Virus record (IMG/VR): IMGVR_UViG_3300029286_002633
Length of the DNA stretch: 64,000 bases
From: an uncultured virus (IMG/VR IMGVR_UViG_3300029286_002633)
Taxonomy: Duplodnaviria > Heunggongvirae > Uroviricota > Caudoviricetes
Strand: one strand, 5' to 3'
Below, in pieces: positions 1,300 to 64,000 of this stretch (positions are counted from its first letter, which is position 1; each line of letters starts with the position of its first letter). The notes under the pieces were generated by a model. It saw only the letters and a list, made by a program, of their open reading frames with translations. It was not told the origin of the DNA and made no database searches. The position numbers and the translations under genes are program-made.

Positions 1300-1642
1300 A
1301 AAATTATATGAAATAATGATGCAATATTTCAATGAATATGGGTCCGTCCCCGTTGATGCAAATCTACTCATTGTCCTGTTTCAATCCAGCGATGGCAATA
1401 TCTACTTCAATGAACGAGAAAAAGTGGCGATAGGGTTCTACGCAGATGGTGCTACGCTACGTTTTGCATTCTTTGAGATACTGGAAGACCGGAAATTGAA
1501 ATGTGTTGGTGAGCGTGGAATATCACTCAATGAATTTGCTGAGCCAGATATGTTGAAAGCGATATCTGCATGTATCGCGTATCGAAAAAGCCATGGTGAA
1601 GCCTTAGACACCAGTGTAGATGTAACACATTATCACGGATGA
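1283..1642 (+). CDS. hypothetical protein
   Basis: GAGGT RBS before ATG 1283; ATGA coupling to the next gene. Confidence 0.7.
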   Translation: MEITDKKLYEIMMQYFNEYGSVPVDANLLIVLFQSSDGNIYFNEREKVAIGFYADGATLRFAFFEILEDRKLKCVGERGISLNEFAEPDMLKAISACIAYRKSHGEALDTSVDVTHYHG

Positions 1643-2211
1643 TTGATATGAAGGAATATTGCATCGTTGATGTTGAAAGCGTGCCATTGGATTATGAAAC
1701 ATACAAGAACGAAACAGAGGAAGAACGGAAAAAATATTTCAACCCGATTCTGTCAAAAATAGTTGCAATCGGGGTCAGACAGAACGCTAAAAACACTCTT
1801 TTCGTATCAACAGACGATGAGCGGAGCATCTTGGACCAATTCTGGGATACATGGCATACTCTTAATTGTTCGATGGTTGGTTTCAACATCCTTGAGTTTG
1901 ACATCCCGATGCTGATTGGACGTAGTTTCATCCATGAGGTCGAGGTAGTTCCATTTACCTTAAACAGAGAGATAATAGACCTGCGGCAGAGGCTTGCTGC
2001 ATTTAAATTCAACCCGAAAGGCACGTTGAAGGAATACGCGAAACTCATTGGATTGGAACTCAGTGAGTTTGATGGAAGTATGGTCGCTGATTTGGTCGCA
2101 ACCGGTAGACTTGATGAATTACGGGGGTATCTTGAGAGGGATTTGGAACTCACTGATGCTGTTTTTAAGCGTGCAGAGAAATTGAACATACTTAAAATCG
2201 AGAAATGGTGA
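1639..2211 (+). CDS. DnaQ/PolB-like 3'-5' exonuclease (standalone)
   Basis: ExoI IVDVES, ExoII GFNILEFD, ExoIII YLERD. Confidence 0.85.
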   Translation: MIDMKEYCIVDVESVPLDYETYKNETEEERKKYFNPILSKIVAIGVRQNAKNTLFVSTDDERSILDQFWDTWHTLNCSMVGFNILEFDIPMLIGRSFIHEVEVVPFTLNREIIDLRQRLAAFKFNPKGTLKEYAKLIGLELSEFDGSMVADLVATGRLDELRGYLERDLELTDAVFKRAEKLNILKIEKW

Positions 2212-2422: not shown

Positions 2423-2561
2423 AACGAGGTGGAGTAGCCTGGGCAACTCGACAGGCTCATACATAGGAATGTGGGAGATTTCACCTGAAATGGTGGGACG
2501 TGACCACCCATGTTCCATTGGAGATACCTGTAGAACGGCGGTTCAAATCCGTCCCTCGTTA
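2423..2561 (+). tRNA. tRNA-Met(CAT), initiator-like, with 64-nt intron (2462-2525) at canonical 37/38
   Basis: Acceptor AACGAGG/CCTCGTT+A, D-stem GAGT/ACTC, anticodon stem ACAGG/CCTGT, loop CTCATA|A, T-arm GGCGG-TTCAAAT-CCGTC; TATTTAAA box about 30 nt upstream. Confidence 0.92.
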
Positions 2562-2898: not shown

Positions 2899-3267
2899 AT
2901 GGCGGAATATGATGGAGAACTCTGGTCAAATCTGATGGTTGCTGGGAGAAAAACAGAGAAAGGATTAGCCCATAAGATGTCAGAGAAGCAGATTCTCAAT
3001 ATTCATGATTGGATTGATTACATCGGTGCGCCTGGTGGTGTTGAAGACCCGCTTGCCTTGAATCAGATGATGAACTATGATTTGAACATGGCAAAATACA
3101 AACTCTACGACCTCACAGGCATGATAATGCAGGGACGTTGGGGCGATGACTTGATACCATTGGGTAATAAGATAGCAAAGGCATACCTTACCTGTGTTGA
3201 TAAGGAACTCCCTGAAATCAAGAAGTTCTACGATTGTGTGAACACCGAGATTTATAAAATAGAGTGA
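2899..3267 (+). CDS. hypothetical protein
   Basis: ORF downstream of a motif promoter; coupled to the next gene. Confidence 0.7.
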   Translation: MAEYDGELWSNLMVAGRKTEKGLAHKMSEKQILNIHDWIDYIGAPGGVEDPLALNQMMNYDLNMAKYKLYDLTGMIMQGRWGDDLIPLGNKIAKAYLTCVDKELPEIKKFYDCVNTEIYKIE

Positions 3268-3692
3268 TGCAAATGATTGACAAGAGAGTTAATGAATCTT
3301 GTCAGAGTTTTAAACAAATCACTAAAGACATGTGGGGAGAAAAAACCTATAAAAATATGATTATCACCTGCAAAAAATTAAAGTCAAACCCTGCCGTTTA
3401 TTACAAAAACAAAAAAGGGATATACCGTACACATATGGTTGCTGCGGTTGGACGCAGTTGCGGGAAAAACGGTTTCTGTAAAGAATATACCCTTTTTTTA
3501 ACACCATACTCATTAAGCCTTCCTGATGATGACAGGGATGCAATACTGAGACATGAAGCGATACACATAAAAATACCGGCTCACAGAAAAAACTTCAAAA
3601 CTGTCGCAAAAAAAGAAGATGCACCATTGACAGGAGATGCTGCACATATGATTGCGACAAAACATAAAATAAAAAAAGCATTAGGTTTATAA
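3264..3692 (+). CDS. SprT-like zinc metallopeptidase
   Basis: ILRHEAIH...H..F (HExxH plus third His). Confidence 0.7.
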   Translation: MMQMIDKRVNESCQSFKQITKDMWGEKTYKNMIITCKKLKSNPAVYYKNKKGIYRTHMVAAVGRSCGKNGFCKEYTLFLTPYSLSLPDDDRDAILRHEAIHIKIPAHRKNFKTVAKKEDAPLTGDAAHMIATKHKIKKALGL

Positions 3693-3699
3693 GGAGATT

Positions 3700-3913
3700 T
3701 ACAATTATAGAACCCCAACTCATGATACTTCCCTTACAGAAGTGTTAGGTTCGGAAACACCTTCACCCCCTGACGATGAATCATGGACAAGGTCGTAATC
3801 CCGACGTGGAGTCGAAAACCATCCGATGTGAAGTCAGGGGGCAAAGTTTCCACAAGGTAAAGATTAACCAGTATACGTATGAAACCCAACTACCAATTGT
3901 GTCTTTACCTTAT
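3700..3913 (-). ncRNA. candidate large structured ncRNA of unknown class
   Basis: Nested stems 3854-3863/3902-3911, 3766-3774/3833-3841, 3753-3758/3846-3851; G-U extensions work only on the minus strand. Confidence 0.65.
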
Positions 3914-3914
3914 T

Positions 3915-3944
3915 TGTATACCTACTTGTAGTAATGCTTAATAA
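3915..3944 (+). promoter_or_regulatory. element promoter motif copy
   Basis: TGTATACCTACTTG with TTAATAA at +23. Confidence 0.75.
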
Positions 3945-4062
3945 TTAACCAACCAATCTCTTTGTGTGAAGTTTACAAAAGAATCCAACCTGCGTATAGC
4001 ACGCACCTTTCTAAAGCACTCCCGTGGTAGAGGTAAGCATGCGTTTAAGGAGGTATCTCTCT

Positions 4063-4737
4063 TTGTCTGATTGGAAATGGAACTGGGCTTTAATAGAGAA
4101 ATTCAACGTCCTCTGTAAAGAGTTCAATGGTATGCCAACAAATGAAGTTGGTGGTATCATTGCATGTAAATTAACGGAGTTTGATGATTTCAAGGCTTTC
4201 ACGCATTGGATGTTTAATCAAAAGAAAGCACACCCCACCACAACGCTATCCGCGAAATATGTTGATGACGACGACATTGAGTCCTGGCTCACGGCTGAAT
4301 TTAACCTATGGACGAACATGGCTGACAAGTTGAGCAGAGATTTGCATCTCAAGGAGAGGTACAGTCTTGGTTATTCACAGACCATTAACGAGTTCGTTGA
4401 CGAAGAACTTGATTTCCGTATGGAAGATTCTGATTGGCAAGCGGATTTAACACTGACTAAAGATGAACAAAAAGAACTCATTGCGAATCTTGCGAAGCCT
4501 TATCTTGCAGATGGTGTGAAAGTTGATACGTTTTTTGATAATAACGATGACCATTGGTATGCTGATGCTGAGGTTAATTTCATATTTGAGGACCATGGTG
4601 TGTATTCATCTGTGTTGAAAGACGCTGAAGAAACATGCAATATGCTCACAAGCGAGGCAGGTAGAATATTCACGAAGAAACTTAATGATGAGATTGACCG
4701 ACTCAGACCATTGCGGGGAAGGAGACCACCGTTATGA
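4063..4737 (+). CDS. acidic hypothetical protein
   Basis: AAGGAGGT RBS before TTG 4063; D/E-rich. Confidence 0.7.
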   Translation: MSDWKWNWALIEKFNVLCKEFNGMPTNEVGGIIACKLTEFDDFKAFTHWMFNQKKAHPTTTLSAKYVDDDDIESWLTAEFNLWTNMADKLSRDLHLKERYSLGYSQTINEFVDEELDFRMEDSDWQADLTLTKDEQKELIANLAKPYLADGVKVDTFFDNNDDHWYADAEVNFIFEDHGVYSSVLKDAEETCNMLTSEAGRIFTKKLNDEIDRLRPLRGRRPPL

Positions 4738-5952: not shown

Positions 5953-6275
5953 TTGCGAGAGCAGATGTCCGATTGGCTTTACGAAAACTTCAGAACCCAG
6001 ACCGTTTCTTCAAAGAAGGTGTCTTTAAACTCTGTAAAGAGGTCTACGGCGATGAACGAGAGGAACTGGTCAGTGCCACTGAGATGGAATGCACTGATTA
6101 CTTTGAAGAAGGGGTTGATGAACTCTATAAGGCACTCACCGGTAAAAGAATAGGGGAAAAACTTACCTATCGTGATGCATCAGCACTTGCAAAATGGTGG
6201 AATACCCATCACGTTGGGGGTCATCATGAAATAGTCAAAAGAGACGATAAATTCTATGATGTCGTCAGGAAGTAA
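5949..6275 (+). CDS. hypothetical protein
   Basis: ATGA coupling to the previous gene. Confidence 0.7.
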   Translation: MIARADVRLALRKLQNPDRFFKEGVFKLCKEVYGDEREELVSATEMECTDYFEEGVDELYKALTGKRIGEKLTYRDASALAKWWNTHHVGGHHEIVKRDDKFYDVVRK

Positions 6276-6277
6276 AA

Positions 6278-6760
6278 ATGAAACTAATTAACGCTAAAAT
6301 AGTAAAAGGTGAGTTTGCGGCTACACGCATGGAGTGGTTCTGCGGTGAGTTTGAGACACAAGCCTGGCAGGGTGGTGATGCATCGCAATATATCGGTTGC
6401 ATCGACATGACAAACCCGAAATATGCTGGTAAACCAATCTTCTTCATCAGCAAAGGTCAGCCACCGGAGAAATTTGATTTCCATAAAGATGCGTATTCAT
6501 CCTTTGAGCAGGTCGCCATGGCACAAATCACGGTCATGGATTGGGAGCGACTGAGAAACGGTGATAAAATCACGCTTGACAGAGAGATGACAGAAAATAT
6601 ACGAAGATGGAACGGACGCATCTGGATGGGCGGCTCAATCAGTCACATCAGAAGCCCTGAGCCTGGCGTTCATATCCTTGAACGAGAGGAGCAACCACTT
6701 GAAGACCGTATCATAGACGGAAGATTAATCCGTTATACGAAAACAAATGAGGAGTATTGA
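6278..6760 (+). CDS. hypothetical protein, paralog family B
   Basis: Paralog of 5058-5396. Confidence 0.75.
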   Translation: MKLINAKIVKGEFAATRMEWFCGEFETQAWQGGDASQYIGCIDMTNPKYAGKPIFFISKGQPPEKFDFHKDAYSSFEQVAMAQITVMDWERLRNGDKITLDREMTENIRRWNGRIWMGGSISHIRSPEPGVHILEREEQPLEDRIIDGRLIRYTKTNEEY

Positions 6761-7146
6761 TGAAAAAAAAGAAAAGCAAAATGCGTGAATCAATGGATAA
6801 ATATGAAGAAGTTCGCATTCTTGAAATCATGGATACTTTACCATTATTTTATGATAAGATTGGTGTTAAAAAAGCGAAAGCAGTTCAAGACCATTATTTG
6901 AATGAAATGGAAATGGCAACAGAGAATTGTGACGGTGCAATGCTTGCGATATCAACAAGTTATATGGAAAAACAACGAGCGATTTTGATGTCATTAGAGA
7001 AAAAAGTGGACGTATTAAATGATGATGAATATGAAGAGTTTAGACAAGACCTATTAAAAACAACAAAACGAGAGGCAAATATTTACCACAAATGGAATGA
7101 TGTATGCATTTGTACAAGGAAGGACATACTGAAAGAAGGAGATTAA
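6757..7146 (+). CDS. helical protein, paralog family C
   Basis: Shares P...K.G, CDGA and terminal CxC with 16467 and 19702. Confidence 0.7.
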   Translation: MMKKKKSKMRESMDKYEEVRILEIMDTLPLFYDKIGVKKAKAVQDHYLNEMEMATENCDGAMLAISTSYMEKQRAILMSLEKKVDVLNDDEYEEFRQDLLKTTKREANIYHKWNDVCICTRKDILKEGD

Positions 7147-22842: not shown

Positions 22843-23031
22843 ATGCAACAAAAGAAACCAGTTGATTTCGAGGCGATATTCCGGTCGGAGGGGCTTGAGC
22901 AACTTCCAGTCGGTAAATGTGTGGCGGCAGGGTCAAAAGGTGAGATGATGGTCTGCCGGACAGATGAGAACGAGTGGATTGCTGAAGGGAGCGACGGAGT
23001 AAAATTTAAAGGTAAGATTGACAGGAAATAA
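22843..23031 (+). CDS. small hypothetical protein
   Basis: TTTAATA box upstream; T-rich terminator downstream. Confidence 0.6.
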   Translation: MQQKKPVDFEAIFRSEGLEQLPVGKCVAAGSKGEMMVCRTDENEWIAEGSDGVKFKGKIDRK

Positions 23032-27364: not shown

Positions 27365-27404
27365 AACAATAAACATTATATATCCTCAAACTAATCTCAA
27401 TTTT

Positions 27405-27481
27405 GGAGTGGTAAACTACGAGTCTTGGCGCTCATCACCCTTGGCTGGTTCTTTACTGCTCCCACTTCTCAAAGTTGAGAG
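27405..27481 (+). ncRNA. candidate structured leader / small RNA
   Basis: 11-bp stem 27405-27415/27452-27462 enclosing two CTTGGC-loop hairpins; TTATATA at 27376. Confidence 0.55.
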
Positions 27482-27499
27482 AACAAAGGATGGATTTAT

Positions 27500-27742
27500 T
27501 TGCAGGCGCAGGCGGAAGGCGTAACTCAAGAGGCGACGAAGAAAGTCAATGCGATATGGGCTGGTGAACTTCTTGTTGATTGCCCTTATTGTGATATGGT
27601 CATTGACGTTATCAAAACAGAGGAATGGAAGGATGACTGGGTGCATAAGTTCCCACCATTGCAGAATCTGACTGGTGTGAACGCTGAAATACAATGCCCT
27701 TACTGTGGCTTGCTTTTTATCGTGGAGGATGTCGAATGGTGA
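27500..27742 (+). CDS. Zn-ribbon protein
   Basis: CPYC...CPYC. Confidence 0.7.
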   Translation: MQAQAEGVTQEATKKVNAIWAGELLVDCPYCDMVIDVIKTEEWKDDWVHKFPPLQNLTGVNAEIQCPYCGLLFIVEDVEW

Positions 27743-51073: not shown

Positions 51074-51184
51074 ATGGACATAATGAAAAAGACCATTGCG
51101 GCGATAGTTTCATCTTTAGTTTTACTTTTACCATTATTCAAAAACATGAGTATTGCTCTTGCCATTATAACGGTATTGAAATGA
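51074..51184 (+). CDS. 36-aa hydrophobic microprotein
   Basis: Leaderless after the motif promoter; ATGA-coupled to the giant gene. Confidence 0.45.
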   Translation: MDIMKKTIAAIVSSLVLLLPLFKNMSIALAIITVLK

Positions 51185-54100
51185 AAAAAATAAAAGAAAT
51201 AAAAATGGAATGCAATAGATTCAAATCTATTTTTGTCGTTCTGCTTTTAATTGCTACTGCATTCTTTGTGTCAATTCCAATAATGCCAATTGTCAATGCG
51301 TCAGGAAATTATTTCGTTTCGACTTGGGATACAACAAAGACGAGCAGTGGTTCGAGCAGTAATAATCAGATAAAATTGCCATTGTACAATGGAGGGACAT
51401 ACGATTTTATCGTTAGATGGGGTGATGGAACCCAGAGCGTCATAAAAGCATGGAACCAGGCGAATGTGACACATACGTACGGAGCCTCCGGTGTGAAGAC
51501 GTTAAATATCTCTGGAACAATCAACGGTTGGCGTTTCAACAATGGTGGGGACCGACTGAAGATAAGTGATATAACCTCATGGGGACCTTTGCTTGTCGGC
51601 AACAACAATGGTTATTTCTATGGATGCGCTAATCTTGTCTGCACAGCAACGGATGTCCTTGATTTGACAGGAACAACAACTCTGCAAAATATGTTCTATG
51701 GGGCGACTGCATTCAATGGAACCATTGGAAATTGGGACACTGCAAACGTCACGAACATGGCTAGTATGTTCAGGTCAGCGACAAACTTCAATAGGAATAT
51801 CTCTGGATGGAACACTGGGAAAGTGACTACGATGGCAAGTATGTTCCAATCAGCGACAAACTTCAATCAAACGATAGGTGCGTGGAATACCGCCAACGTC
51901 ACTACCATGGCAAATATGTTCCAATCAGCGACGAACTTCAATAGGAATATCTCTGGATGGAACACTGGGAAAGTGACTACGATGGCAAGTATGTTCCAAT
52001 CAGCGACAAAGTTCAATGTAAATATCTCTGGATGGAACACTGGGAAAGTCACTACGATGGCAAGTATGTTCCAATCAGCGACAAAGTTCAATCATCCGAT
52101 AGGTACCTGGGATGTATATAATGTCACCACCATGGGCAGTATGTTTAATGGTGCTACTGTTTTCAATCAGTCTATTGATGACTGGAATACCTATAATCTT
52201 AAAACAATGTCCAGTATGTTTGCGAGTGCCACCTCATACAATAAACCAATGAATTCCTGGGACACTCACAGCGTTACTGCAATTGATGGTTTATTTTATG
52301 GTGCAACAAAATTCAACCAGCCACTTAATAATTGGAATGTCAGTAGTACAACAAACTTTCAGAGCACTTTTAGAAATGCAAGGGCATTCAATGGTGATAT
52401 TACTTCTTGGAATGTCGGCAAGGTGACAAATTGGCAGTGGGCTTTCACCGGTGCTTGGGCGTTCAATCAACCCATTGGTGGATGGAACATGGGTAGTGCC
52501 ACTAATATGTTATATGCTTTCCAGGATTGTCAATCCTTTAATCAGAATTTATCAAGTTGGAATACGGGCAAGATGTCCAATATGGCAAATATGTTTCGTG
52601 GTGCTACTGTATTCAATGGAGACATACGTAATTGGAATACGTCAAGTGCCACCACCATGGCGTATATGTTCGCTGAAACATCTTTTAATCAACCGATAGG
52701 AAATTGGAATACCAGCAAGGTCACAACCATGAATAATATGTTCCAATATAGTTCATTTGACCAGAATATAGGAGATTGGGACATAGACTCTGTTACAAGT
52801 ATGGCTGGAATGTTCACAGGAGTGACTTTATCCACAGCGAACTACAATGCACTTCTCATCGGATGGGCGGCTCAGGATGTGAGAACCGGAGTGAGTTTAG
52901 GCGCTGGCACTTCAAAGTATAGTCCAATGGACCATCCCGCAAGTGTCGCCAGAGCACACCTCGTTACTGCTCACGGGTGGGTCATCACTGATGGCGGACC
53001 GGATAGTCAACGAGCGCCGCAAAACCCTCTCTGTCAAGGGCAGATAAATCCGATTAAGATAACATCGACTACACCGACGTTCAGTTGGACGTTCATCGAC
53101 CCAGACCCCGGAAACACACAAGGTGGCTATAACATCCGTGTAGGCACAACAGCCAATAGTGGAGATATGTGGAACACTACTGTTACCAGTGCATCTCAAT
53201 CTGTCATCTATGCTGGTTCAACCCTCTCACGTGGTGTGACGTATCATTGGTCAGTACGGACGAACGCTACGTATAACAGCACCACGATGGGACCGTATTG
53301 CGGAGACCAGACCTTCGAGATAAATGCTTATGCTGTTGCGACACCTGCTGCACCATCAAACAATACTACAGGACAAAACCTCTATGCAACAGTTTCCTGG
53401 ACATACTATGACACAGAAAGCGCGACACAGACCGCTTATCATCTTCTCATTGATGATGACTCAGCGTTCGGTTCACCTGCGGTGAATGTCAATGTTACAA
53501 GCACTGCGGTTGAATACACGTGCACATCTCCTCTGGTCAACAACACGATTTATTACTGGAAAGTCAAGGTTAAAGACGACGTCCAATGGGGTGCATACAG
53601 CACTCGCTGGCAGTTCAAGACAACCAACCTTTCCGTATGGGGCATCACTACATTTAACTCAGGTTATGTTAAAACATCAGCGTTCAACGTCAACCAGAAA
53701 GTCGTCATCCAATACAACGTCACAAACATCATCGGCACGAACAACACCTACATCACCATCACCGACCCGAAAGGCACAAAACAGGTCGACCATCAAGGAG
53801 TAGCATCATTACAGGAGAACTTCACGACAGAAACAAGATGGCTTGATGATGTCAACAACCAATGGAACGTCGCCACTGATTTCTATGTCTCGTCCCCTAA
53901 AGCCTATCAGCATGGACGAAACGGTGGTTCCAGCCGCTATGGAACATACACACTACTCAATACAACATATCTTGCGAACCAATCCGATGCCACAATCCAA
54001 GTAAACATCTACGTCGATTACAGCGGTGAGGATATGCAACGGCTGTTCCTCCGATGGAAAGATGCAAACAACTACGTCTGCGCCTATATGTCTACGGTTT

Positions 54101-57100
54101 ATTCCGTCATCGGCATCGAAGAAAAAGTCGCCGGTGTCAGATACTTCACAGAGACATCCCATCTTTTCTCACAGGACACCTGGTATACAATGAAATTTGC
54201 ATTATCCGGGACAACCGCATCCGTCTACATCAACAACGCATGGATGCTCACCAAAACCCATCTCGTTACAACAGGTAGCGGACGCATGGGAATCGGCACT
54301 GACACCGGATGGATTTATTTCGATGATTTCTCCGTAGGGTATCCGAACTCACGTGTAGTGAAAGCAATCACAAACGGCTATCAATACGAGTTCAACTACA
54401 CTACACCATCAGACATCTCACTCGCCGGAGTATGGACAATCGACGCAACAGCAGAGCAACTCGGACAGACTGCGACAAACACCTCGACCTTCACCATCTA
54501 CACAACATACCCATATATCAACGACATCACGACATACAACAATTCATACTTCCCACAAACCATCTTCTACAACGGCAACCAAGTAGTCATCCGCACACAA
54601 GTCACTGATTATTACGGGCGAACAGCCATCACCAACTGCAACATCACTATAAAAAACCCCTTGGGGACAACAAAAATCAACAAGGTCGAGATGTCGCATA
54701 TTGGCAACATCACCAACGGATATCTCTATGAGTACAACTATACAATACCGACAGAGACAGCATCGCAGGGGACATGGAACATCACCGTCAATGCAAAAAA
54801 CAACCGTTCAGGGGTAGCATCAAAAACACAATATTTCATTGATTATCTCGGAGCACCAGAGGTCTCCATTAAAACATATGATGAATATTCAAATGAAAAA
54901 ACCTTATTTTCCTTAAACGAACAGGTAATAATCAAAGCCACTGTAACAGACGTCAACGGTGCATCCAACATCACCTCTTGCAACATCACCATTTATGCAC
55001 CGAACGGTACTAAAAAAATCACCAATGCGACAATGAACTGGATAGGTAACGTCACGAACGGTAAAATCTACAGTTATACCTATCTGCCACCCACCCTCAA
55101 TACCTTTGGGACATGGGCAGTAACAATACGGGCGAAAGACTACCACTATACCACAGCGGGTGTTTCTCATTTCATCCTCGAATGGGCAGACACCAACTAC
55201 TATCATCGAGAGAAATTAACACTGATAGAACAATTCAACATTGACAGGACACACGAACTCATGGGATTCTCCGTGACCTTACCAACGAACGTCTGCGGCG
55301 GGAACAACACCATCAAAATCGTCAACGAACGAGGAGAGACCATGCCTTTTTCAATCCTGAAGAAATCAGGTACCACTTACTATGTAGGTTACGTGACAAA
55401 CATCAGTGCCAGCGCCGTGCTTGACTATTACATCTACTACAACATAACCGGAACAACACCATCGTTGTATACACCATTCACTAATGCCGCTTACAATAAC
55501 CTCACCTTACACGAATCAAATTACACGCAGGTCTATGCACCGACCACACAGAACATCACACAGGGGAAATCCATCTGCCTCTATGATATCGACAACGATG
55601 GAAAAAAGGAGATAATCTGGGCTGGAAGAACAGGACCAGCATTGAAAAACAAAGGTTTCCTTGCCATTTACAACACCACCTGGACCTCAACAGGAATCTG
55701 CAACCTGCATCAACTCGCCTATACTGAATGGAACAACACGGACAACACAGGGGAGGCGTTCGCCTATACTGTCAATATATCAGATGTAGATAACGATGGG
55801 ATACCTGAAATCATCACCGGAGGCACATCATACAGTGGTGTTAAGAACAAGGCTCAACTCCGCATCTGGAATTACACCAGCGGGTCTATTCATCTTGAAA
55901 AAGAGAGCGTCTGGTATGATATGACCGCAGGAGACACGGTCATCTACGGGATTGTCTGCAAGGATGCTGACGGTGATGGAAACAAAGAGATATTAACCGC
56001 AGGCACCACAGGGACGAACAACGCCCGTGGACAATTCGGAGTCCACCGGTATCTCTCCGGCACACTCACCCATGTTTATTTTGCGAATTACAGCATCTAC
56101 CCGACCGCAGGACGCAACTGGACAGAGTTCAACAGCATCCTCGTTGGCGATATTTATACGACAGGCGGTGTGCAAGTCGCTATCGGCGGTGAGGGTTTCG
56201 ATTCAAGCGGTGTCATCAACTCGGTCATCAACATCTATCGTTATTATTCTGGTGCCTGGCATCAGGATTGGACGAAGACATGGTATGATGGTCAACTATC
56301 AGAAGTTTTCTCTCTTTCATTGGGGAAGATAGACAATAGCGGTAAAAACAAGATGGTTGCGTCAGGGAACTACTTTGACGGCATAAGAGATATCGCGTTC
56401 TACAGGGTCTTTTATGCATCTGGAACTGGATATCCCGCCACAATGGTGGAAGATACCGGGGCGTACCAGAGTTGGTACATCAGCGGGTATTCATCAGCCC
56501 TCACCAACCTTGTCAGAGACATCAACAACGACGGGATGAACGACATCGTCACCGTAGGATTCCAGAACAACCAGGTCATTGATAGCGGTGATTATAAGAT
56601 ACGACGCTACAATGGAGCAACAACCCTCCTTGAACACAATGAGATTTGGACAAGCCAATATGCCCGACGTAGCGGTGATTTCTTCGATGCCGCTCAAATC
56701 GGAGACCTGAACAACGATGGATTCAATGAACTCGTTGACACAGGTCGTTACGCCCTTACGCCACCAGCCGGTACTTACCTGCGTGTGCAAACCGTTGGTG
56801 GTGTAAGTCAAGAGGTAAGTTCTTTTCCTGTTTTGAATGGAACGCAAGATACGATGCCTCCGCAACCACCGACATCTTTTATAGTTGTAGCGAGAAATCA
56901 AACATCTCTTAACTTGAGTTGGACAAAACCAGCCTACGCGAATGGAACATTGATACGGTATAGCGATACCGCATATCCCTCAAGTATAACCGATGGGGGT
57001 TTTGCGTATAATGGTACTGGAGCCGCCTGCACAGTGACTGGTTTGAATGAGGGGACAATCTATTATTTCACTGCATGGTGTTGGAGAACAGGGAATTTCA

Positions 57101-58083
57101 CCTATTCGGTTTACGGGTCATTTACCACTGGAAAGACAAAACCAGAGGCGCCAACTATTACAACATCAAATTCTACTTCAAACCTAATTCAGTTGAACAT
57201 CATTAAAGGGGAAGGAGCAACACATACACGTATCCAACGGGGCGACTCTGCATATCCGAGCAGTATGACAGATGGCACAACTGTTTATAATGACACAGAA
57301 ACAATAACAGAGGATATTGGACTTAACCAATCACATACCTACTATTATCGTGCATGGTCATTTGATTCCAGTATTGATGATTGGTCGTTTACATATGAGG
57401 ATGCAACAGGAACAACAAAGCCAATGCCACCAAGTTCCGTGAGCACCAATGTCGATGTGGACTTCATCAATATCTCCTGGATAGCAGATGCCGGAGACTT
57501 CACCATCATCGTTAGAAATGAAAGCGGGTATGCTGGATATCCAACAAATTTCACAAACGGCACACTCATCTACAACGGGACGAATTTATATTATAAAGAT
57601 TCACCGCTTTCTACATTCACAAAATACTATTACACCATATGGACATATAATACTACCACTCATCTTTACTCCGACCCCGTCAACATAAACGCTACAACAA
57701 GTCCTACATCAATGAGTATCATTGTATCACCAAATTCAATAGACTACGGTAGTGTAATGATTGGGGAATCAGTCAAAACAACAGAACATCATTTCAACAT
57801 CACTAACCTTGGTATGGAATGCAACATAGACATTCAATGTGAAAATACTGAGAATTGGACATACGTTACTTATTCCAACATTGGTCATAATCAATACAGC
57901 ATGAACTGGTCAGATGACAACTGGACAGGAGAACACAACATACTGAACAGTGGGTCAAATATAATCATGGACCTGCTTTATGACCAAAACTTTTTATTTG
58001 ACTTGAAATACATCCTCCCAACATCATCAAGTACATTGAATCAGCAACATATGGCAATCACATTTATCGCCACTCCGAGTTAA
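51181..58083 (+). CDS. giant secreted adhesin: BspA/DUF285 repeats, FN3/Ig-like stalk, lectin-like domain, FG-GAP-like propeller, shared C-terminal domain
   Basis: Signal peptide; 25-aa FN..I..WNT..VT.M..MF repeats; D.DNDG..EI repeats. Confidence 0.9.
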   Translation: MKKIKEIKMECNRFKSIFVVLLLIATAFFVSIPIMPIVNASGNYFVSTWDTTKTSSGSSSNNQIKLPLYNGGTYDFIVRWGDGTQSVIKAWNQANVTHTYGASGVKTLNISGTINGWRFNNGGDRLKISDITSWGPLLVGNNNGYFYGCANLVCTATDVLDLTGTTTLQNMFYGATAFNGTIGNWDTANVTNMASMFRSATNFNRNISGWNTGKVTTMASMFQSATNFNQTIGAWNTANVTTMANMFQSATNFNRNISGWNTGKVTTMASMFQSATKFNVNISGWNTGKVTTMASMFQSATKFNHPIGTWDVYNVTTMGSMFNGATVFNQSIDDWNTYNLKTMSSMFASATSYNKPMNSWDTHSVTAIDGLFYGATKFNQPLNNWNVSSTTNFQSTFRNARAFNGDITSWNVGKVTNWQWAFTGAWAFNQPIGGWNMGSATNMLYAFQDCQSFNQNLSSWNTGKMSNMANMFRGATVFNGDIRNWNTSSATTMAYMFAETSFNQPIGNWNTSKVTTMNNMFQYSSFDQNIGDWDIDSVTSMAGMFTGVTLSTANYNALLIGWAAQDVRTGVSLGAGTSKYSPMDHPASVARAHLVTAHGWVITDGGPDSQRAPQNPLCQGQINPIKITSTTPTFSWTFIDPDPGNTQGGYNIRVGTTANSGDMWNTTVTSASQSVIYAGSTLSRGVTYHWSVRTNATYNSTTMGPYCGDQTFEINAYAVATPAAPSNNTTGQNLYATVSWTYYDTESATQTAYHLLIDDDSAFGSPAVNVNVTSTAVEYTCTSPLVNNTIYYWKVKVKDDVQWGAYSTRWQFKTTNLSVWGITTFNSGYVKTSAFNVNQKVVIQYNVTNIIGTNNTYITITDPKGTKQVDHQGVASLQENFTTETRWLDDVNNQWNVATDFYVSSPKAYQHGRNGGSSRYGTYTLLNTTYLANQSDATIQVNIYVDYSGEDMQRLFLRWKDANNYVCAYMSTVYSVIGIEEKVAGVRYFTETSHLFSQDTWYTMKFALSGTTASVYINNAWMLTKTHLVTTGSGRMGIGTDTGWIYFDDFSVGYPNSRVVKAITNGYQYEFNYTTPSDISLAGVWTIDATAEQLGQTATNTSTFTIYTTYPYINDITTYNNSYFPQTIFYNGNQVVIRTQVTDYYGRTAITNCNITIKNPLGTTKINKVEMSHIGNITNGYLYEYNYTIPTETASQGTWNITVNAKNNRSGVASKTQYFIDYLGAPEVSIKTYDEYSNEKTLFSLNEQVIIKATVTDVNGASNITSCNITIYAPNGTKKITNATMNWIGNVTNGKIYSYTYLPPTLNTFGTWAVTIRAKDYHYTTAGVSHFILEWADTNYYHREKLTLIEQFNIDRTHELMGFSVTLPTNVCGGNNTIKIVNERGETMPFSILKKSGTTYYVGYVTNISASAVLDYYIYYNITGTTPSLYTPFTNAAYNNLTLHESNYTQVYAPTTQNITQGKSICLYDIDNDGKKEIIWAGRTGPALKNKGFLAIYNTTWTSTGICNLHQLAYTEWNNTDNTGEAFAYTVNISDVDNDGIPEIITGGTSYSGVKNKAQLRIWNYTSGSIHLEKESVWYDMTAGDTVIYGIVCKDADGDGNKEILTAGTTGTNNARGQFGVHRYLSGTLTHVYFANYSIYPTAGRNWTEFNSILVGDIYTTGGVQVAIGGEGFDSSGVINSVINIYRYYSGAWHQDWTKTWYDGQLSEVFSLSLGKIDNSGKNKMVASGNYFDGIRDIAFYRVFYASGTGYPATMVEDTGAYQSWYISGYSSALTNLVRDINNDGMNDIVTVGFQNNQVIDSGDYKIRRYNGATTLLEHNEIWTSQYARRSGDFFDAAQIGDLNNDGFNELVDTGRYALTPPAGTYLRVQTVGGVSQEVSSFPVLNGTQDTMPPQPPTSFIVVARNQTSLNLSWTKPAYANGTLIRYSDTAYPSSITDGGFAYNGTGAACTVTGLNEGTIYYFTAWCWRTGNFTYSVYGSFTTGKTKPEAPTITTSNSTSNLIQLNIIKGEGATHTRIQRGDSAYPSSMTDGTTVYNDTETITEDIGLNQSHTYYYRAWSFDSSIDDWSFTYEDATGTTKPMPPSSVSTNVDVDFINISWIADAGDFTIIVRNESGYAGYPTNFTNGTLIYNGTNLYYKDSPLSTFTKYYYTIWTYNTTTHLYSDPVNINATTSPTSMSIIVSPNSIDYGSVMIGESVKTTEHHFNITNLGMECNIDIQCENTENWTYVTYSNIGHNQYSMNWSDDNWTGEHNILNSGSNIIMDLLYDQNFLFDLKYILPTSSSTLNQQHMAITFIATPS
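51775..52092 (+). repeat. near-identical 75/150-nt tandem repeats within the BspA region
   Basis: AATATCTCTGGATGGAACACTGGGAAAGT.ACTACGATGGCAAGTATGTTCCAATCAGCGACAAA occurs three times. Confidence 0.85.
53116..53258 (+). repeat. 143-nt exact repeat, copy 1 (copy 2 at 62449-62591)
   Basis: Identical by direct comparison. Confidence 0.9.
54307..54403 (+). repeat. 97-nt repeat, copy 1 (copy 2 at 63637-63733; 1 mismatch)
   Basis: Direct comparison. Confidence 0.9.
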
Positions 58084-58161: not shown

Positions 58162-61100
58162 ATGCGGACTTTGAATAAAAAAATATTAGCAATTTATATT
58201 ACATCCATCTTTTTATTTGGGGGGTTATCTTTCTTTGATTTTACTCCTACAGTCAGTGCCACAGATTATACTCATCTGACTTGGTGTGTCCAAGCATTTA
58301 CATCAGGTAGTGGAACATGGACTGTTCCAAGCGGGGTTACACAGATTGATATCCTTGTCGTCGGTGGCGGTGGTGGGTCTGGTTCAGGGACAACGAATAT
58401 GAATTCTGATGGTGGTGGCGGTGGCGCTGGTGGTCTTGTCTGGATTCGTAATGTGACGAGCCTTGGAGGAACTGCTGTTTCAGAAGGTAATAGTTTTTCA
58501 TATTCTGTTGGTACTGGCGGTGCTGCATCCGGTGGAAGCGCGTATGGCGCAAATGGCATTAAATCAACATTCGGTAATTTGACGGCTTGGGGTGGTGGCG
58601 GGGGAGGCGATTACACTAGTGCTTATGTCAATGGACGGACTGGTGGTTCTGGCGGTGGCGGTGGTACCGGTAATAGTGATGGTTCTGGCGGTGGGACTAA
58701 TCAAACTTCTACGTCCGGTTGGTCAGGAACATATGGGTTCGGTTATGCTGGTGCAACAACAGTCGGTTGGACCAATGGTGGTGGCGGCGGTGGTGCTACT
58801 GGAGCAGGGACGACAAGCTCGACATCTCCTGGTGGTGCTGGAAAGAATTTATCAGCCTATTTTGGCATGTCTTATGGTATTTCAGGGGTTTTTTCAAAAG
58901 GTGGGAATGGTGGCACTGCCAGCACCCCTGCTGCAACTGTAGCAAATACAGGAAACGGTGGTAACGCAGCAATACAAAGTGGCACAATAGGTTATGCTGG
59001 AGCATCTGGTATCATTCTTTTGAGATGGCAGCCAACAATAACACCGCATACCTATACAGATGGTTCAATGAAAGTTTGGCATATATACGCACTTGAGGGA
59101 TACTCTGGAACTTGGAAGGTTCCAGAAGGTGTGATAAAAATTGATGTTTTGGTAGTTGCGGGTGGTGGTGGTGCTGGTAGCGCCGCCGCTACATCAGGTT
59201 TTCATGGCGGTGGTGGAGGCGGTGGTGGTCTTGTCTGGGCTCGTAATATATCAAAAATTGGTTCAACTGAAATAAATGGGGGCAACACTATTTCATATTC
59301 GGTGGGTGCTGCCGGTATTCGTTCAACTACAAGTGGGTTGGATAGAGGAACAAGTGGTGGTGATTCGACCTTTGGTAATCTGACTGCAAAAGGCGGTGGT
59401 GCAGGTGGGACGTCATATTCAACATATCGTGCTGGTGTTAATGGTGGTTCTGGTGGTGGAGCGGGTGTTGCAGCGACGTCTACTGCAAGTGGCGGAACAT
59501 CCACACAATCAAGCGTAGGCGGATGGTCATCAACCTATGGTTTTGGATATGCGGGGGCAGCATCAACTTCATCAGGTAATCCTGGTGCTGGAGGTGGTGC
59601 AGGTTCTGCTGCAAGCGGAGGAACAGTCGGCTCTGGAAAGAACATGTCATCATATTTCGGCACAGACTTTGGTGTTTCTGGTGTTTTTGCAAGAGGAGGG
59701 GCTGTAAAATCTACACTTGGTAATGAGACTGCAAACAGCGGGAATGGTGGAAATGCAAACACAAGCAACGGCATGGGTGGAGATGGTGGAAGCGGTATTA
59801 TTCTCATACGATGGTGCGATTGGGCTGCTCAAGGGCATACATGGGGAATTCATTCTTTAACTTTATCCAGTGGAACCTGGACGGTACCAGACGGTGTAAC
59901 AAAGATGGACGTTCTTGTCGTCGGTGGTGGCGGTGCCAGTGGTATGGCACAGACAACTGGATACGGTGGCAATGGCGGTGGTGGTGCTGGAGGTCTCATC
60001 TGGAAACAGAACATCACTAACTTTAGTGGCATAAAGTTTGAAACCAGTACTTCAACGGGACTCGTTCGTTTAGTATATGGCACCATCTGGGATGCACAAA
60101 CATTTACAATTGGTTCAGTAGGGGTAAATTGTGGTCACAATATAACATCTGTAAAATTATTAATTGCTAGAGTTGGTTCACCTGGCACAATCACGGTAAG
60201 TATACGTGCGACATCAGGGGGATTACCAACTGGAAGTGATTTGACATCAGGTTCAATCAATGGAAACACTCTAAGTACATCAGCAACTTGGGTTGAGATA
60301 CCACTCACTTCATATGAATTATCAAAATCGACAGCGTATGCCATTGTTGTTAGGGCGACATCAGGGGATGCAAGTAATTATGTATCATGGACAAGAAGTT
60401 CCAGTAGTACATATGCTGGAGGGCAGATGTGCGAATCTTCGGATAGCGGAGCATCATTTACGGGTTCTTCATCATATGATTTTGCGTTTGAAGAATACGG
60501 TACAGTTTTCATAATTCCTGGACATGAAATCCCATACAGAGTCGGTGCAGGGGGCATTGGTGCTACCACAACAAATGCTAAAGGGACAAATGGGGGCAAT
60601 TCTATATTTGGTAATATGACTGCAATAGGCGGTGGTGCTGGTGGCGCTGGGAGCGGAACATCAGCAACAAAAACTGGAAGCAATGGTGGTTCTGCTGGGG
60701 GTGGAGCATACAATGCAGGTCCCGGAGGAACATCAAATCAATCATCAACAACTGGTTGGTCTAAGCTATTCGGAAATGGATTCAACGGCGGTGTAAGTAG
60801 CGGAAATAATGGTGGTGGCGGTGGTGGTGCAGGTGAAGCAGGGAATACCGATGCATCATGGTATGGTGGCGATGGAAAGAACATGTCATCATATTTCGGA
60901 AATTCATATGGAGAAAACGGATGGTTCGCTGGCGGTGGTGGTGGTGGGCGAGATGGGACAGCCGCCCCAATAGGTGGTGATGGTGGTGGTGGAAATGGTG
61001 CAAAGTATGGTACCTCTTACGCTGAAGCAGGGCAGGCAAACACCGGTGGCGGTGCTGGTGGGCAATATGCAGCATCCTCTCAAAATGGAATGGCTGGCGG

Positions 61101-64000
61101 TAGTGGTGTCATCCTCATACGATGGAGGTTGGACCAAGAAGTAACAGTTACAACGAATACAACAACAGGTATCGGAGCGAACAATGCCACGCTGTGGGGA
61201 TACCTTGATAGTGACGGTGGGGAGAACTGCACAGTTCGATTTCAATATGGAACTACTACAAACTACGGAACCAATACAACAAATCAGACGGGAAAGGGGA
61301 CGGGGGAAAACTTCAGCGCCGGGGTCTCGGGATTGTCGGAAGGAACCGTATATCACTATCGTGCCTATGCAAACAATACTGGTTCTTCAGATACTGGCGA
61401 TGATATGACATTTTTAACACAACCAGACCCACCAGATGATACATCATCACAAGCAAACAGTTCATCAGTCATCTATCTCACATGGACAAAGGGCACTGGT
61501 GCAAATTATACAAGAATAGAAAGAGACACAAACTGGTATCCATTATTAGGCGAGGGGACTTTAGTTTATAACGGCACTGGAACACATTGTGAGGATACAT
61601 CCATCTCTCCTGGTCAGCGTTATTATTACGCACTTTGGAGTTTTACAACATGGGGTATCTTGTCTCGATGGTCTGAATATGAAGATGCAACACAATTTTG
61701 TTCAATGCCAGGAAGCACCACATCATTCACTTCTCAAGTGAATAGCACAGAAATTATATATCTTAATTGGGTGAAAGGAACAGGCGCAAACTATACAAGG
61801 ATTCAGAGAAGCACAACAGGATACCCATCCTCAATTTCTGATGGAACAAATGCCTATAACAACACAGGCATATTATTGGAAGATGGTGGTCTTGACGCTG
61901 GAACTGCTTATTATTACCGTGCATTCAGTTTTTCAACCTGGCAAGGCACATATGGCGATGGTCCTTATAGTAAATGGAATACAACAAACGTGAGTGCGGT
62001 ATTACTCACACAACCAGAATCACTCTATGGATTCACTGCAACAAAATATACATCAACACAAATAAATCTTGCTTGGACGAATGGAGCAGGTGGTGATGGT
62101 GCATATATCGAATATGCAGTAGGTTCAGCACCCGCCCCATGGAACAAAGGCTCTGGAACAATGATTGATGCAGATGGATATGTGATGGGGGAAGCATTCC
62201 CACATACAGGATTGACGTCAGGCTCACGTTACTATTACAAGGCATGGACGGTGGCAAGCGATGATGGTCTTTTATCAGATGGAACCACTAAAAAACCATT
62301 TGGTAATACTTCAACCAATGATGAAACAACAAATAGCATTCCTAATGCACCATCAAATCCTCTTTGTCAATCACAAACAAATCCAACAAAGATATTTTCA
62401 TTGACTCCGACATTTAGTTGGACTTTCAGCGATGACGATGGAGGAGATACACAAGGTGGCTATAACATCCGTGTAGGCACAACAGCCAATAGTGGAGATA
62501 TGTGGAACACTACTGTTACCAGTGCATCTCAATCTGTCATCTATGCTGGTTCAACCCTCTCACGTGGTGTGACGTATCATTGGTCAGTACGTACAAATGA
62601 TACTTGGGCAGGTACGATGGGACCATATTGCGGCGACCAGACATTCAAGATAAATGCAATACCATTCGCAACGCTTACATCACCTGCGGACACATCGACA
62701 GGCGTAACACTCACACCAACTCTTGGATGGGATTTCACTGACACAGATTCAGATACACAATCCAACTACCATGTGCAAGTATCAAAATATTCTGCATTCA
62801 ATTCAACCGTTATTGATACAAACACATCTGGGACATCAACCAGTTATCCAGTATCATCTTCTTTGACGAATGGGACAAAATATTACTGGCGTGTCAAGGC
62901 AAAAGACGGCTATGAATGGTCTCCATTTACGAGTTCATGGTACTTCACAACCACTAACCTCCAAGTAAAAAACCTTACAACATATAACTCAAATTATGTT
63001 CCAACAACAACATTTGAAGTGAACCAAAAGGTCGTTATCCAATATAATGTGACAAATATCGTTGACATGAACAATACTTACATCACGATACAAGACCCGC
63101 TTGGAACAAAACAGGTTGACCATTCAGGTGTTTCTTCTGCAAAGCAAAATTTCACTACTGATACAAATTGGAATGAAGACGTCGCTAACAGATGGAACCC
63201 TGCAACAGATTTCTATGTTTCTTCACCAAAATCCTATCAGCATGGACGAAATGGTGGTTCAGGAACATATAATAACATTGCATTATTGAAAACATCAGTC
63301 CTTTCCAATCAAACTAATCTTACTGCTGAAGTGAAATGGTATGTTGATTATAGTGCTGAGGACATGCAACGAATACTTGTCAGATATAAAGACTCGAATA
63401 ATTACGTTGCATGTTACGCCTCAAGCGTATATTCAGTTCTTGGTGTTGAAGAACGAATAGGTGGCGTGCGATATTTCGAGGAAACATCTCGATTGTTCTC
63501 TCAAGACACCTGGTATACAATGAAACTGGTGTTAGAAGGCTCAACAGCCAAAGTCTACATCAATGACGTGCTTTTAGTAACAAAGACCCATCTTGCAACA
63601 ACAACTGCTGGGCGTGTCGGTATCGGTTGTGATTCTGGATGGATTTATTTCGATGATTTCTCCGTAGGGTATCCGAACTCACGTGTAGTGAAAGCAATCA
63701 CAAACGGGTATCAATACGAGTTCAACTACACTATTCCAAACAACGTCAGTTTGCTTGGAACATGGACAATCACCGCATCGGCTGAACAACTTGGACAAAC
63801 TGCACAGCAGCAGAAGACATTTGATGTTATTTCAACAGCACCCGTGGTTCTTAACATTTCTACTTTTAACTCAACATTTATCCCAAAAACAACTTTCATA
63901 AACGGAGACACCGTAATAATACGCACATGGGTTATTGATAAATATGGGAGTGCAGGGATAAGCGTCTGCAATGTCACAATCAAAAACCCTGCAAGCACCA
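58162..64000 (+). CDS. second giant secreted adhesin (3' truncated, >1940 aa): three glycine-rich domains, FN3 repeats, stalk homologous to 51181-58083
   Basis: ATG 58162, MRTLNKKILAIY...VSA signal; W.VP.GV...DVLVV.GGG at about 58318, 59113, 59878; frame reads open to the window end, which explains its absence from the ORF track. Confidence 0.9.
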   Translation, partial: MRTLNKKILAIYITSIFLFGGLSFFDFTPTVSATDYTHLTWCVQAFTSGSGTWTVPSGVTQIDILVVGGGGGSGSGTTNMNSDGGGGGAGGLVWIRNVTSLGGTAVSEGNSFSYSVGTGGAASGGSAYGANGIKSTFGNLTAWGGGGGGDYTSAYVNGRTGGSGGGGGTGNSDGSGGGTNQTSTSGWSGTYGFGYAGATTVGWTNGGGGGGATGAGTTSSTSPGGAGKNLSAYFGMSYGISGVFSKGGNGGTASTPAATVANTGNGGNAAIQSGTIGYAGASGIILLRWQPTITPHTYTDGSMKVWHIYALEGYSGTWKVPEGVIKIDVLVVAGGGGAGSAAATSGFHGGGGGGGGLVWARNISKIGSTEINGGNTISYSVGAAGIRSTTSGLDRGTSGGDSTFGNLTAKGGGAGGTSYSTYRAGVNGGSGGGAGVAATSTASGGTSTQSSVGGWSSTYGFGYAGAASTSSGNPGAGGGAGSAASGGTVGSGKNMSSYFGTDFGVSGVFARGGAVKSTLGNETANSGNGGNANTSNGMGGDGGSGIILIRWCDWAAQGHTWGIHSLTLSSGTWTVPDGVTKMDVLVVGGGGASGMAQTTGYGGNGGGGAGGLIWKQNITNFSGIKFETSTSTGLVRLVYGTIWDAQTFTIGSVGVNCGHNITSVKLLIARVGSPGTITVSIRATSGGLPTGSDLTSGSINGNTLSTSATWVEIPLTSYELSKSTAYAIVVRATSGDASNYVSWTRSSSSTYAGGQMCESSDSGASFTGSSSYDFAFEEYGTVFIIPGHEIPYRVGAGGIGATTTNAKGTNGGNSIFGNMTAIGGGAGGAGSGTSATKTGSNGGSAGGGAYNAGPGGTSNQSSTTGWSKLFGNGFNGGVSSGNNGGGGGGAGEAGNTDASWYGGDGKNMSSYFGNSYGENGWFAGGGGGGRDGTAAPIGGDGGGGNGAKYGTSYAEAGQANTGGGAGGQYAASSQNGMAGGSGVILIRWRLDQEVTVTTNTTTGIGANNATLWGYLDSDGGENCTVRFQYGTTTNYGTNTTNQTGKGTGENFSAGVSGLSEGTVYHYRAYANNTGSSDTGDDMTFLTQPDPPDDTSSQANSSSVIYLTWTKGTGANYTRIERDTNWYPLLGEGTLVYNGTGTHCEDTSISPGQRYYYALWSFTTWGILSRWSEYEDATQFCSMPGSTTSFTSQVNSTEIIYLNWVKGTGANYTRIQRSTTGYPSSISDGTNAYNNTGILLEDGGLDAGTAYYYRAFSFSTWQGTYGDGPYSKWNTTNVSAVLLTQPESLYGFTATKYTSTQINLAWTNGAGGDGAYIEYAVGSAPAPWNKGSGTMIDADGYVMGEAFPHTGLTSGSRYYYKAWTVASDDGLLSDGTTKKPFGNTSTNDETTNSIPNAPSNPLCQSQTNPTKIFSLTPTFSWTFSDDDGGDTQGGYNIRVGTTANSGDMWNTTVTSASQSVIYAGSTLSRGVTYHWSVRTNDTWAGTMGPYCGDQTFKINAIPFATLTSPADTSTGVTLTPTLGWDFTDTDSDTQSNYHVQVSKYSAFNSTVIDTNTSGTSTSYPVSSSLTNGTKYYWRVKAKDGYEWSPFTSSWYFTTTNLQVKNLTTYNSNYVPTTTFEVNQKVVIQYNVTNIVDMNNTYITIQDPLGTKQVDHSGVSSAKQNFTTDTNWNEDVANRWNPATDFYVSSPKSYQHGRNGGSGTYNNIALLKTSVLSNQTNLTAEVKWYVDYSAEDMQRILVRYKDSNNYVACYASSVYSVLGVEERIGGVRYFEETSRLFSQDTWYTMKLVLEGSTAKVYINDVLLVTKTHLATTTAGRVGIGCDSGWIYFDDFSVGYPNSRVVKAITNGYQYEFNYTIPNNVSLLGTWTITASAEQLGQTAQQQKTFDVISTAPVVLNISTFNSTFIPKTTFINGDTVIIRTWVIDKYGSAGISVCNVTIKNPAST
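62449..62591 (+). repeat. 143-nt exact repeat, copy 2
   Basis: Identical to 53116-53258. Confidence 0.9.
63637..63733 (+). repeat. 97-nt repeat, copy 2
   Basis: Matches 54307-54403. Confidence 0.9.

Follow-up and report, generated by a model that had tools for sequence, protein, structure and literature searches.

Between two genes of an uncultured virus lies a gap that an earlier note, made from the letters of this DNA, had read as a new kind of structured RNA, which raises the question of what in this gap is conserved, whether it would act as RNA and, if so, on which strand. The gap belongs to a stretch of 64,000 nucleotides, referred to here as the window, which is likely part of an uncultured virus and has nearly all of its long ORFs on the plus strand; near-identical DNA is present in metagenome runs from lake water, freshwater and sediment. 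Fifty-five of the 66 window ORFs scanned had no Pfam match, and PHROGs added little to this. The few Pfam matches include a PolB-type exonuclease, RusA, a radical-SAM/SPASM protein, an S8 peptidase, a lipocalin and giant proteins with DUF285, PEGA and Ig-like domains. The gap itself separates a gene of 142 aa (3264–3692, plus strand) from an ORF of 237 aa, whose gene probably occupies 4039–4737 (plus strand); neither has a Pfam or PHROG match. Only two homologues of the downstream protein, P0001 and P0002, were found among 5.8 billion clusters, and since their alignment begins at the methionine encoded at 4039, this ATG is likely the true start of the gene.

A scan of metagenome contigs yielded at least one related locus, on a contig of 8252 bases (L005), and contigs of the small-share runs X9, X11 and X18 were compared as well; stretches to which no contig of X7, X9 or X18 extends carry no weight in this comparison. 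By BLAST, the genes shared between the window and L005 are 74–83% identical in nucleotides and the exons of a tRNA gene 80–86%, and window positions 3712–4047 align with L005 5972–6252. Homology stops just to the left of 3716, and other genes occupy the position of the 142-aa gene in L005. Within the alignment lies a block (3722–3852), the core, that differs from L005 5980–6111 by 9 substitutions in 131 aligned bases and is more alike than the neighbouring genes and the tRNA exons of the two sequences. None of the reading frames across the core is conserved, and the block is non-coding. On these patterns of conservation the core is probably a functional non-coding module of an unclassified kind.

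Contigs of X9 and X11 also cover the core. X9 record 9 matches 3806–3928 without a difference, that is, through a hairpin of ~60 bases that follows the core in the window (3853–3912), and this hairpin therefore exists in the X9 population. It coincides with a 54-base alignment gap in L005 and is skipped in X11 record 1 (3555 bases), which jumps from 3852 to 3915 with 15 other letters between; this record also lacks one base at 3826 and gains one after 3831. The spacer between the core and the promoter described below is accordingly ~60 bases long in the window and X9, ~8 in L005 and 15 in X11 record 1, and was replaced in all three readable lineages. A miniature repeated mobile element would be expected in several copies per genome; BLAST found one copy of the core in the window and one in L005. 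Run X11 holds a divergent copy in a second context. This last copy, on X11 record 2 (3243 bases, at similar depth), matches 3724–3823 only, with 13 differences and 3 gaps, and its flanks are unlike those of the other copies; thirty letters of its loose end, read by eye, contain the second arms of both stems described below, with 7 of 9 pairs kept in the inner stem and 5 of 6 in the outer. The contigs thus place the core in at least three settings, namely that of the window and X9, that of L005 and X11 record 1, and that of X11 record 2. Its position is independent of the non-homologous genes that flank it, and its stem is retained.

Larger collections were also searched. IMG/VR returned no relatives when the three flanking proteins were used as queries, and 0 matches to a 21-base word from the core and to a degenerate stem pattern; four IMG/VR loci obtained with the stem pattern (L001–L004) had no further BLAST likeness and were attributed to chance. 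Chance was also the verdict on five IMG/VR loci obtained with the promoter pattern, as the three records searched (those other than L015 and L016) held 1–2 motif copies each. Among species genomes the 21-base word had 0 matches, and none of seven loci from a degenerate pattern (L006–L012) showed any likeness in BLAST or tblastx comparisons. A search of phage and plasmid records was likewise negative. A covariance model built from the two core copies, run against the window and L005, found only those two copies. A full-text literature search turned up no such element, as judged from the titles and abstract openings listed.

Within the core, a small hairpin is joined by nine linker bases to a long stem, which is in two parts and surrounds an interior of 58 bases. 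The small hairpin (3728–3744; ACUUCU/GGAAGU on the minus strand) is identical in L005 and is predicted on both strands. It is followed by the linker (3744–3752; GAACCUAAC on the minus strand, GUUAGGUUC on the plus strand), the switch element of the earlier reading, which varies at 3750–3752 in L005 and X11 record 1. The first arm of the outer stem, P1 (3753–3758; GGAAAC on the plus strand), pairs with 3846–3851 and is invariant in L005; in X11 record 2, A3757>T produces a mismatch. The first arm of the inner stem, P2 (3766–3774; CCCCCUGAC on the plus strand), pairs with 3833–3841, and the second arms of the two stems, which together span 3833–3851, were assigned from fold predictions. Between the arms lies the interior (3775–3832), for which short alternative helices are predicted and in which 3786–3823 is nearly invariant: only position 3799 varies there among L005, X9 and X11 record 1.

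Variable sites 3781, 3784, 3785, 3799, 3824 and 3831 are all in predicted loops, and among the closer relatives the loops hold six of the eight variable sites of 3753–3851, a proportion that is not significant by our own binomial estimate (p ~0.1). The homologue collection and covariation check proposed in the earlier note did produce relatives, with only one compensatory pair in one divergent copy: A3773>G with U3834>C in X11 record 2 (n = 1, read by eye from the loose-end letters). Four relatives, namely L005, X11 record 1 and the two X9 records, carry a one-sided change in the closing pair of P2 (3774 C>T) that keeps the pair on the plus strand only, and 3775 G>A in X9 record 7 keeps a pair on the minus strand only. 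In consensus folds of the window and L005, a comparison of two sequences, 0 of 66 pairs on the minus strand and 0 of 64 on the plus strand had a double-sided change.

Folding energies were compared on both strands. The core of the window folds at -47.3 kcal/mol on the minus strand (z = -2.84) versus -42.4 on the plus strand (z = -2.40), and that of L005 at -41.9 versus -42.0, with z of about -2. When 130-base segments were scanned across 14 gaps between long ORFs (n = 264), the core ranked 8th (z = -2.80) and several of the segments scoring above it lay in small ORFs, so that folding energy alone is weak evidence in this genome. Two other plus-strand segments, both in long gaps between large ORFs, have folds more unusual than that of the core and no Rfam match: 22880–23020 (z = -3.74, 0 of 200 shuffles as good) and 27370–27510 (z = -3.44, 2 of 200).

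The earlier note had described a minus-strand RNA of about 210 bases, and the helices that it listed are all found at their positions and in the minus-strand minimum-free-energy fold of 3913–3700. These are a 5' hairpin (AAGGUAAAGA/UCUUUACCUU) with an inner extension (AAUUGGUA/UACUGGUU), a central domain (GGAAAC-UUU-GCCCCCUGAC / GUCAGGGGGU-GAAG-GUUUCC) and the ACUUCU/GGAAGU hairpin. The relatives do not bear out a unit of that size, as the 5' hairpin, which is the ~60-base hairpin of 3853–3912, is absent from L005 and swapped for 15 other bases in one run contig (X11 record 1). The same note had drawn orientation from G-U pairs. For the 214 bases the predicted energy is -73.1 kcal/mol on the minus strand (z = -3.57, matched by 1 of 200 shuffles) and -58.4 on the plus strand (z = -3.44, matched by 0 of 200), both strands thus being equally unusual; because the energies of the core are nearly equal, this strand difference comes mostly from non-conserved parts outside it. 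As the conserved core folds about equally on both strands, its orientation is not fixed by the G-U pairs.

A pseudoknot and mutually exclusive pairings had also been proposed, in which the linker pairs with either of two partners. The complementarity is real: GAACCUAAC (3752–3744) is complementary to GUUGGGUUU in the loop of the 5' hairpin (3890–3882) and, with one bulge, to GUUGGGGUUC (3719–3710). Neither partner, however, lies in conserved sequence, as the former belongs to the ~60 bases that L005 lacks and for which X11 record 1 has other sequence, and the latter is outside the conserved block and differs in L005. Pairings of 9 bases with G-U allowed were seen in 99% of 300 dinucleotide shuffles, so the pseudoknot pairing alone is not evidence; the number of 9-mers able to pair was 34 in the real sequence versus a shuffle mean of 16.4, a number reached by 4% of shuffles. 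The motif CCAAC occurs on the plus strand at 3715, 3886, 3949 and 3985, four times in 351 bases versus 0.36 expected from the whole window, and two of the four copies are kept in L005. Because CCAAC is repeated, the GUUAGG of the linker has several possible partners.

The AT box that the earlier note had read in reverse proved to be part of a different signal. There is indeed an A/T-rich box at 3938–3948, but it belongs to a recurrent plus-strand promoter motif. BLAST of the region against the window showed that 3902–3940 resembles several other plus-strand intergenic sites, and the upstream motif at 3914–3928 (TTGTATACCTAYTTG, plus strand) recurs ahead of long ORFs: allowing up to 3 mismatches, both strands of the window held 21 matches versus 4.73 expected, a count reached in 0 of 100 shuffles. 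Fifteen of the matches are on the plus strand (2840, 3914, 13242, 16414, 21781, 22524, 27197, 31411, 35829, 36405, 36909, 41181, 42209, 50439 and 58085), 14 of them intergenic and a short distance ahead of a long ORF. All 15 share one layout, in which the motif is followed by 9 bases and an ATATAAC-like box, the box beginning at motif start + 24 throughout; the TATA-like box at 3938 fits this layout and therefore belongs to the plus-strand promoter. No full copy of the motif was found on the minus strand near the studied region. At five of the 15 sites, including a GTG at 3966, a start codon lies 27–30 bases after the box, a spacing that suggests leaderless messages. T runs of at least 5 precede only 4 of the 15 promoters, so a design of structure, T run and promoter is not general. 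The promoter architecture of this virus was thereby mapped as a by-product.

The GTG at 3966 opens a remnant ORF of 34 codons (3966–4070, plus strand) that overlaps the start of the next gene and corresponds to the N-terminus of a gene that is complete in L005. The frame open in the window at 3945–4070 is the same frame that is open in L005 at 6150–6974, where the gene (6171–6974, plus strand) encodes 267 aa, a protein without a Pfam family. The full-length gene is also present in a contig of run X11; in X11 record 1, ~710 bases missing from the window lie between 4047 and 4059, and L005 has a comparable insert. The conserved block beyond the hairpin (3913–4047; 14 substitutions in 135 bases against L005, ~90% identical) is, as aligned, the promoter plus the first 27 codons of a gene mostly lost from the window. 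A conserved "leader" had been considered here as an RNA structure, and was rejected, its z being ~0 on both strands and the stretch being a gene start.

The earlier note had not recognised the region as tRNA, SRP, RNase P or hammerhead, in agreement with an Rfam check that gave no match there to any family, self-cleaving ribozymes, riboswitches and phage RNAs included. When the 64-kb window was scanned with the 4227 models of Rfam 15, scoring each covariance model against its family gathering threshold, the only match was a tRNA at 2423–2561. A permissive scan of 3300–4400 gave seven matches, all with E of at least 1.3 and scores of 12–23 bits versus gathering scores of 38–88, and ARAGORN reported nothing in the studied region. 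A tRNA-like reading of the core was rejected: one hairpin resembles an anticodon arm, but no D or T arm could be drawn, and the permissive scan was also negative. K-turn, C/D-box and bulge-helix-bulge readings of the stem were ruled out by eye. What stands of the proposed new ncRNA class is therefore a conserved non-coding island with no Rfam match; the unit of 210 bases, the conserved pseudoknot switch, a promoter of its own and a fixed minus orientation are unsupported, and the first reading, which combined them, is corrected in its switch, size, promoter and strand. On the suggested roles as ribozyme, switch or guide, which stay hypothetical, only the lack of Rfam matches bears.

The plus strand has no T run of 4 or more in 3650–4050, and a simple terminator scan of 3300–4400 found 0 sites; on the minus strand, a T4 lies inside the core and a T7 just beyond it (3677–3671). 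In X11 record 1, five T directly follow the stem.

Four other accounts of the core were weighed. A separate small RNA on the minus strand, starting at ~3915–3920 from a quasi-symmetric A/T box and ending at the T runs downstream, with the 5' hairpin, pseudoknot and alternative pairings as lineage-specific extras, seems unlikely. In its favour, the core of the window folds somewhat better on that strand (-47.3 versus -42.4 kcal/mol), where two G-U pairs lengthen P2 to 13 contiguous pairs, and 3775 G>A of X9 record 7 and the changes at 3750–3752 remain pairable on that strand only; the A/T box lies ~25 bases before 3915, and downstream there is the T7 run in the window and a T4 run both in L005 and in the loose end of X11 record 2. 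The box, however, has a fixed place in the plus-strand promoter at its 15 plus-strand sites, bidirectional use being possible, and no full motif lies on the minus strand nearby. Also against this account, L005 has no strand preference (-41.9 versus -42.0), 3774 C>T in four relatives breaks the minus pair and not the plus pair, a T4 run falls inside the core on the minus strand, and the long ORFs lie on the plus strand. That the core encodes a small protein is highly improbable. In its best candidate, a 51-codon plus-strand ORF from ATG 3776, the variable sites 3781, 3784 and 3799 are third codon positions, but the frame stops after 16 codons in L005 and is shifted by the indels of X11 record 1 (deletion at 3826, insertion after 3831), a change of AAT to AAA alters the amino acid, and the sequence upstream of the ATG is conserved as much as the ORF; in the other five frames the differences are mostly amino-acid-changing.

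The core could instead be a site in DNA, where a viral protein would bind the inverted repeat (GGAAAC..CCCCCTGAC / GTCAGGGGG..GTTTCC) and the conserved interior that it encloses; it might then serve as a recombination or module junction, as a signal for replication or packaging, or, lying upstream of the promoter, as a region bound by a regulator. In favour of such a site, the folds are strand-symmetric, the interior is kept as primary sequence and not through covarying helices, and the genes on its two sides differ between relatives as they would at a module junction; the second context in X11 record 2 and the four CCAAC copies in 3700–4050, versus 0.36 expected, also agree with it. We nevertheless regard it as improbable, as no integrase, recombinase or replication initiator is found among the 66 Pfam-scanned ORFs, the distance to the promoter of 8, 15 or ~60 bases argues against a phased operator, the core has neither iterons nor an A/T-rich unwinding region, and CCAAC persists in L005 at only 2 of its 4 positions. 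Rather doubtful, finally, yet ranked ahead of the other three accounts, is a core with no function of its own, a block recently exchanged between mosaic viruses whose fold arose by chance from a GC-rich inverted repeat. For this account speak an identity of ~90% in the promoter and gene start next to the core as well (3913–4047, 14 of 135 bases changed), a fold z of only -2 to -2.8, 8th of 264 segments, and the absence of double-sided covariation between window and L005. Full replacement of the spacer with both neighbours kept is unexpected for one recently exchanged block, however, and the divergent copy with other flanks keeps the stem and has a compensatory change.

We place first, tentatively, a plus-strand RNA, in which the core would be carried either between cistrons or at the 3' end of the message from the upstream gene; this ranking follows from the context, which slightly favours the plus strand by its genes, its recognisable promoters and the lack of a plus-strand T4 in 3650–4050. 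Since that stretch has no T4, read-through from the upstream gene is plausible. The conserved module comprises ~131 bases, with a small hairpin, a short linker and a long stem of 6 + 9 pairs round an almost invariant 58-base interior. Whatever gene lies upstream, the module comes straight after its stop codon, and is itself followed by the variable spacer and then by the recurrent plus-strand promoter. As RNA, the long stem may be a stable structure near the 3' end or one used in processing, and the invariant interior may offer a sequence-specific contact for a protein or another RNA. Function is favoured most strongly by the conservation pattern, in which an island persists between non-homologous genes and a scrambled spacer, and in which a diverged copy keeps the stem; this pattern would suit RNA and DNA alike, and either strand. 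The concentration of changes in predicted loops among the closer relatives also speaks for the first reading. Against the plus-strand RNA stand the 0 double-sided changes between window and L005, one-sided changes that conflict, a modest fold z equal on both strands and the 0 sites of the terminator scan. The core could be alike beyond its flanks merely from recent exchange, and the single compensatory pair would be equally compatible with an inverted repeat in DNA. Conservation, non-coding nature, independent position and retention of the stem are shown by the comparisons; that the core would be transcribed, that the plus strand would be the one used and what the function would be, we infer.

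Structured RNA elements in 3'-UTRs or between cistrons, and small RNAs derived from 3'-UTRs, are a known kind in prokaryotes and their viruses. The core is like them in its position after a stop codon, its long stable stem, its conservation as a unit and its non-coding nature; unlike them, it has no canonical hairpin-plus-U-tract terminator found in the scan of 3300–4400, and it has a conserved interior of 58 bases and not a short loop. The oop RNA of lambda is a small antisense RNA of a temperate phage. If made from the minus strand, the core would likewise be a short structured RNA opposite flanking genes, intergenic and near a promoter, but the upstream gene opposed to it differs in relatives, and a minus-strand promoter is unsupported. 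Integron attC sites are imperfect inverted repeats at the 3' end of variable genes, with a core of GTTRRRY. The present core shares this form and this position, and we take GTTAGGT at 3744–3750 to fit GTTRRRY, but the inverse core is missing from the conserved part, the two motifs are in reverse order, and the interior, unlike that of attC, is strongly conserved. An attC-like site was rejected, there being no paired inverse core sites in the expected order and no integrase among the 66 ORFs.

A further likeness is to the orphan RNA motifs of phages and metagenomes in Rfam, as the core is intergenic, conserved, folded and in an uncultured virus; those motifs, in contrast, rest on many covarying sequences, and the core on two full copies and a few contigs. 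With the core apparently outside described families, the case for a new RNA class remains thin: it consists of these two copies, the few contigs and one compensatory pair. We raise only as a possibility that the core represents a new virus-borne structured RNA family that moves as an independent module from one genomic context to another among uncultured freshwater viruses, with the invariant 38 bases of the interior as a binding or catalytic centre. Were the core indeed an RNA, a virus lineage in which hardly any gene can be recognised would have yielded an unclassified structured RNA, and also a non-coding module shuffled between genomes as genes are; since the core is more conserved than the virus's own tRNA exons, it would then also mark an important function.

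How promoter and termination signals are to be read is affected by the domain of the host, on which the tRNA gene bears. This tRNA (2423–2561, plus strand; anticodon CAU; 45 bits in Rfam) was missed by ARAGORN. Its anticodon loop contains 66 bases in place of the 2 of the model, folded as an extension of the anticodon stem. The tRNA of L005 (~1546–1765, plus strand) is interrupted at this point too, by a longer and different insertion, and a short hairpin is common to both; an A/T box lies ~24–33 bases upstream of both tRNA genes. A group I intron would be longer than this insertion, which resembles instead the introns of archaeal or eukaryal type that are spliced by proteins. Together with the spacing of 27–30 bases from box to start, which would suit TATA-type promoters and leaderless messages, it makes up what we take to be archaeal-type features. 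RusA, the lipocalin and the nearest S8 peptidases look bacterial, and two look-ups in a protein atlas gave only bacterial neighbours for a beta-propeller protein and the S8 peptidase, which does not settle the host.

Two observations concern the window as a whole. Runs of at least five A number 275 on the plus strand versus 94 runs of at least five T, a ratio of ~3, and this excess fits an avoidance of T runs on the coding strand. At the far end of the window, two giant plus-strand ORFs (51181–58083, 2300 aa; 58162–63999, more than 1946 aa) contain DUF285 repeats and FG-GAP, fibronectin-III, glycine-rich and Ig-like domains, and probably encode virion surface or adhesion proteins.
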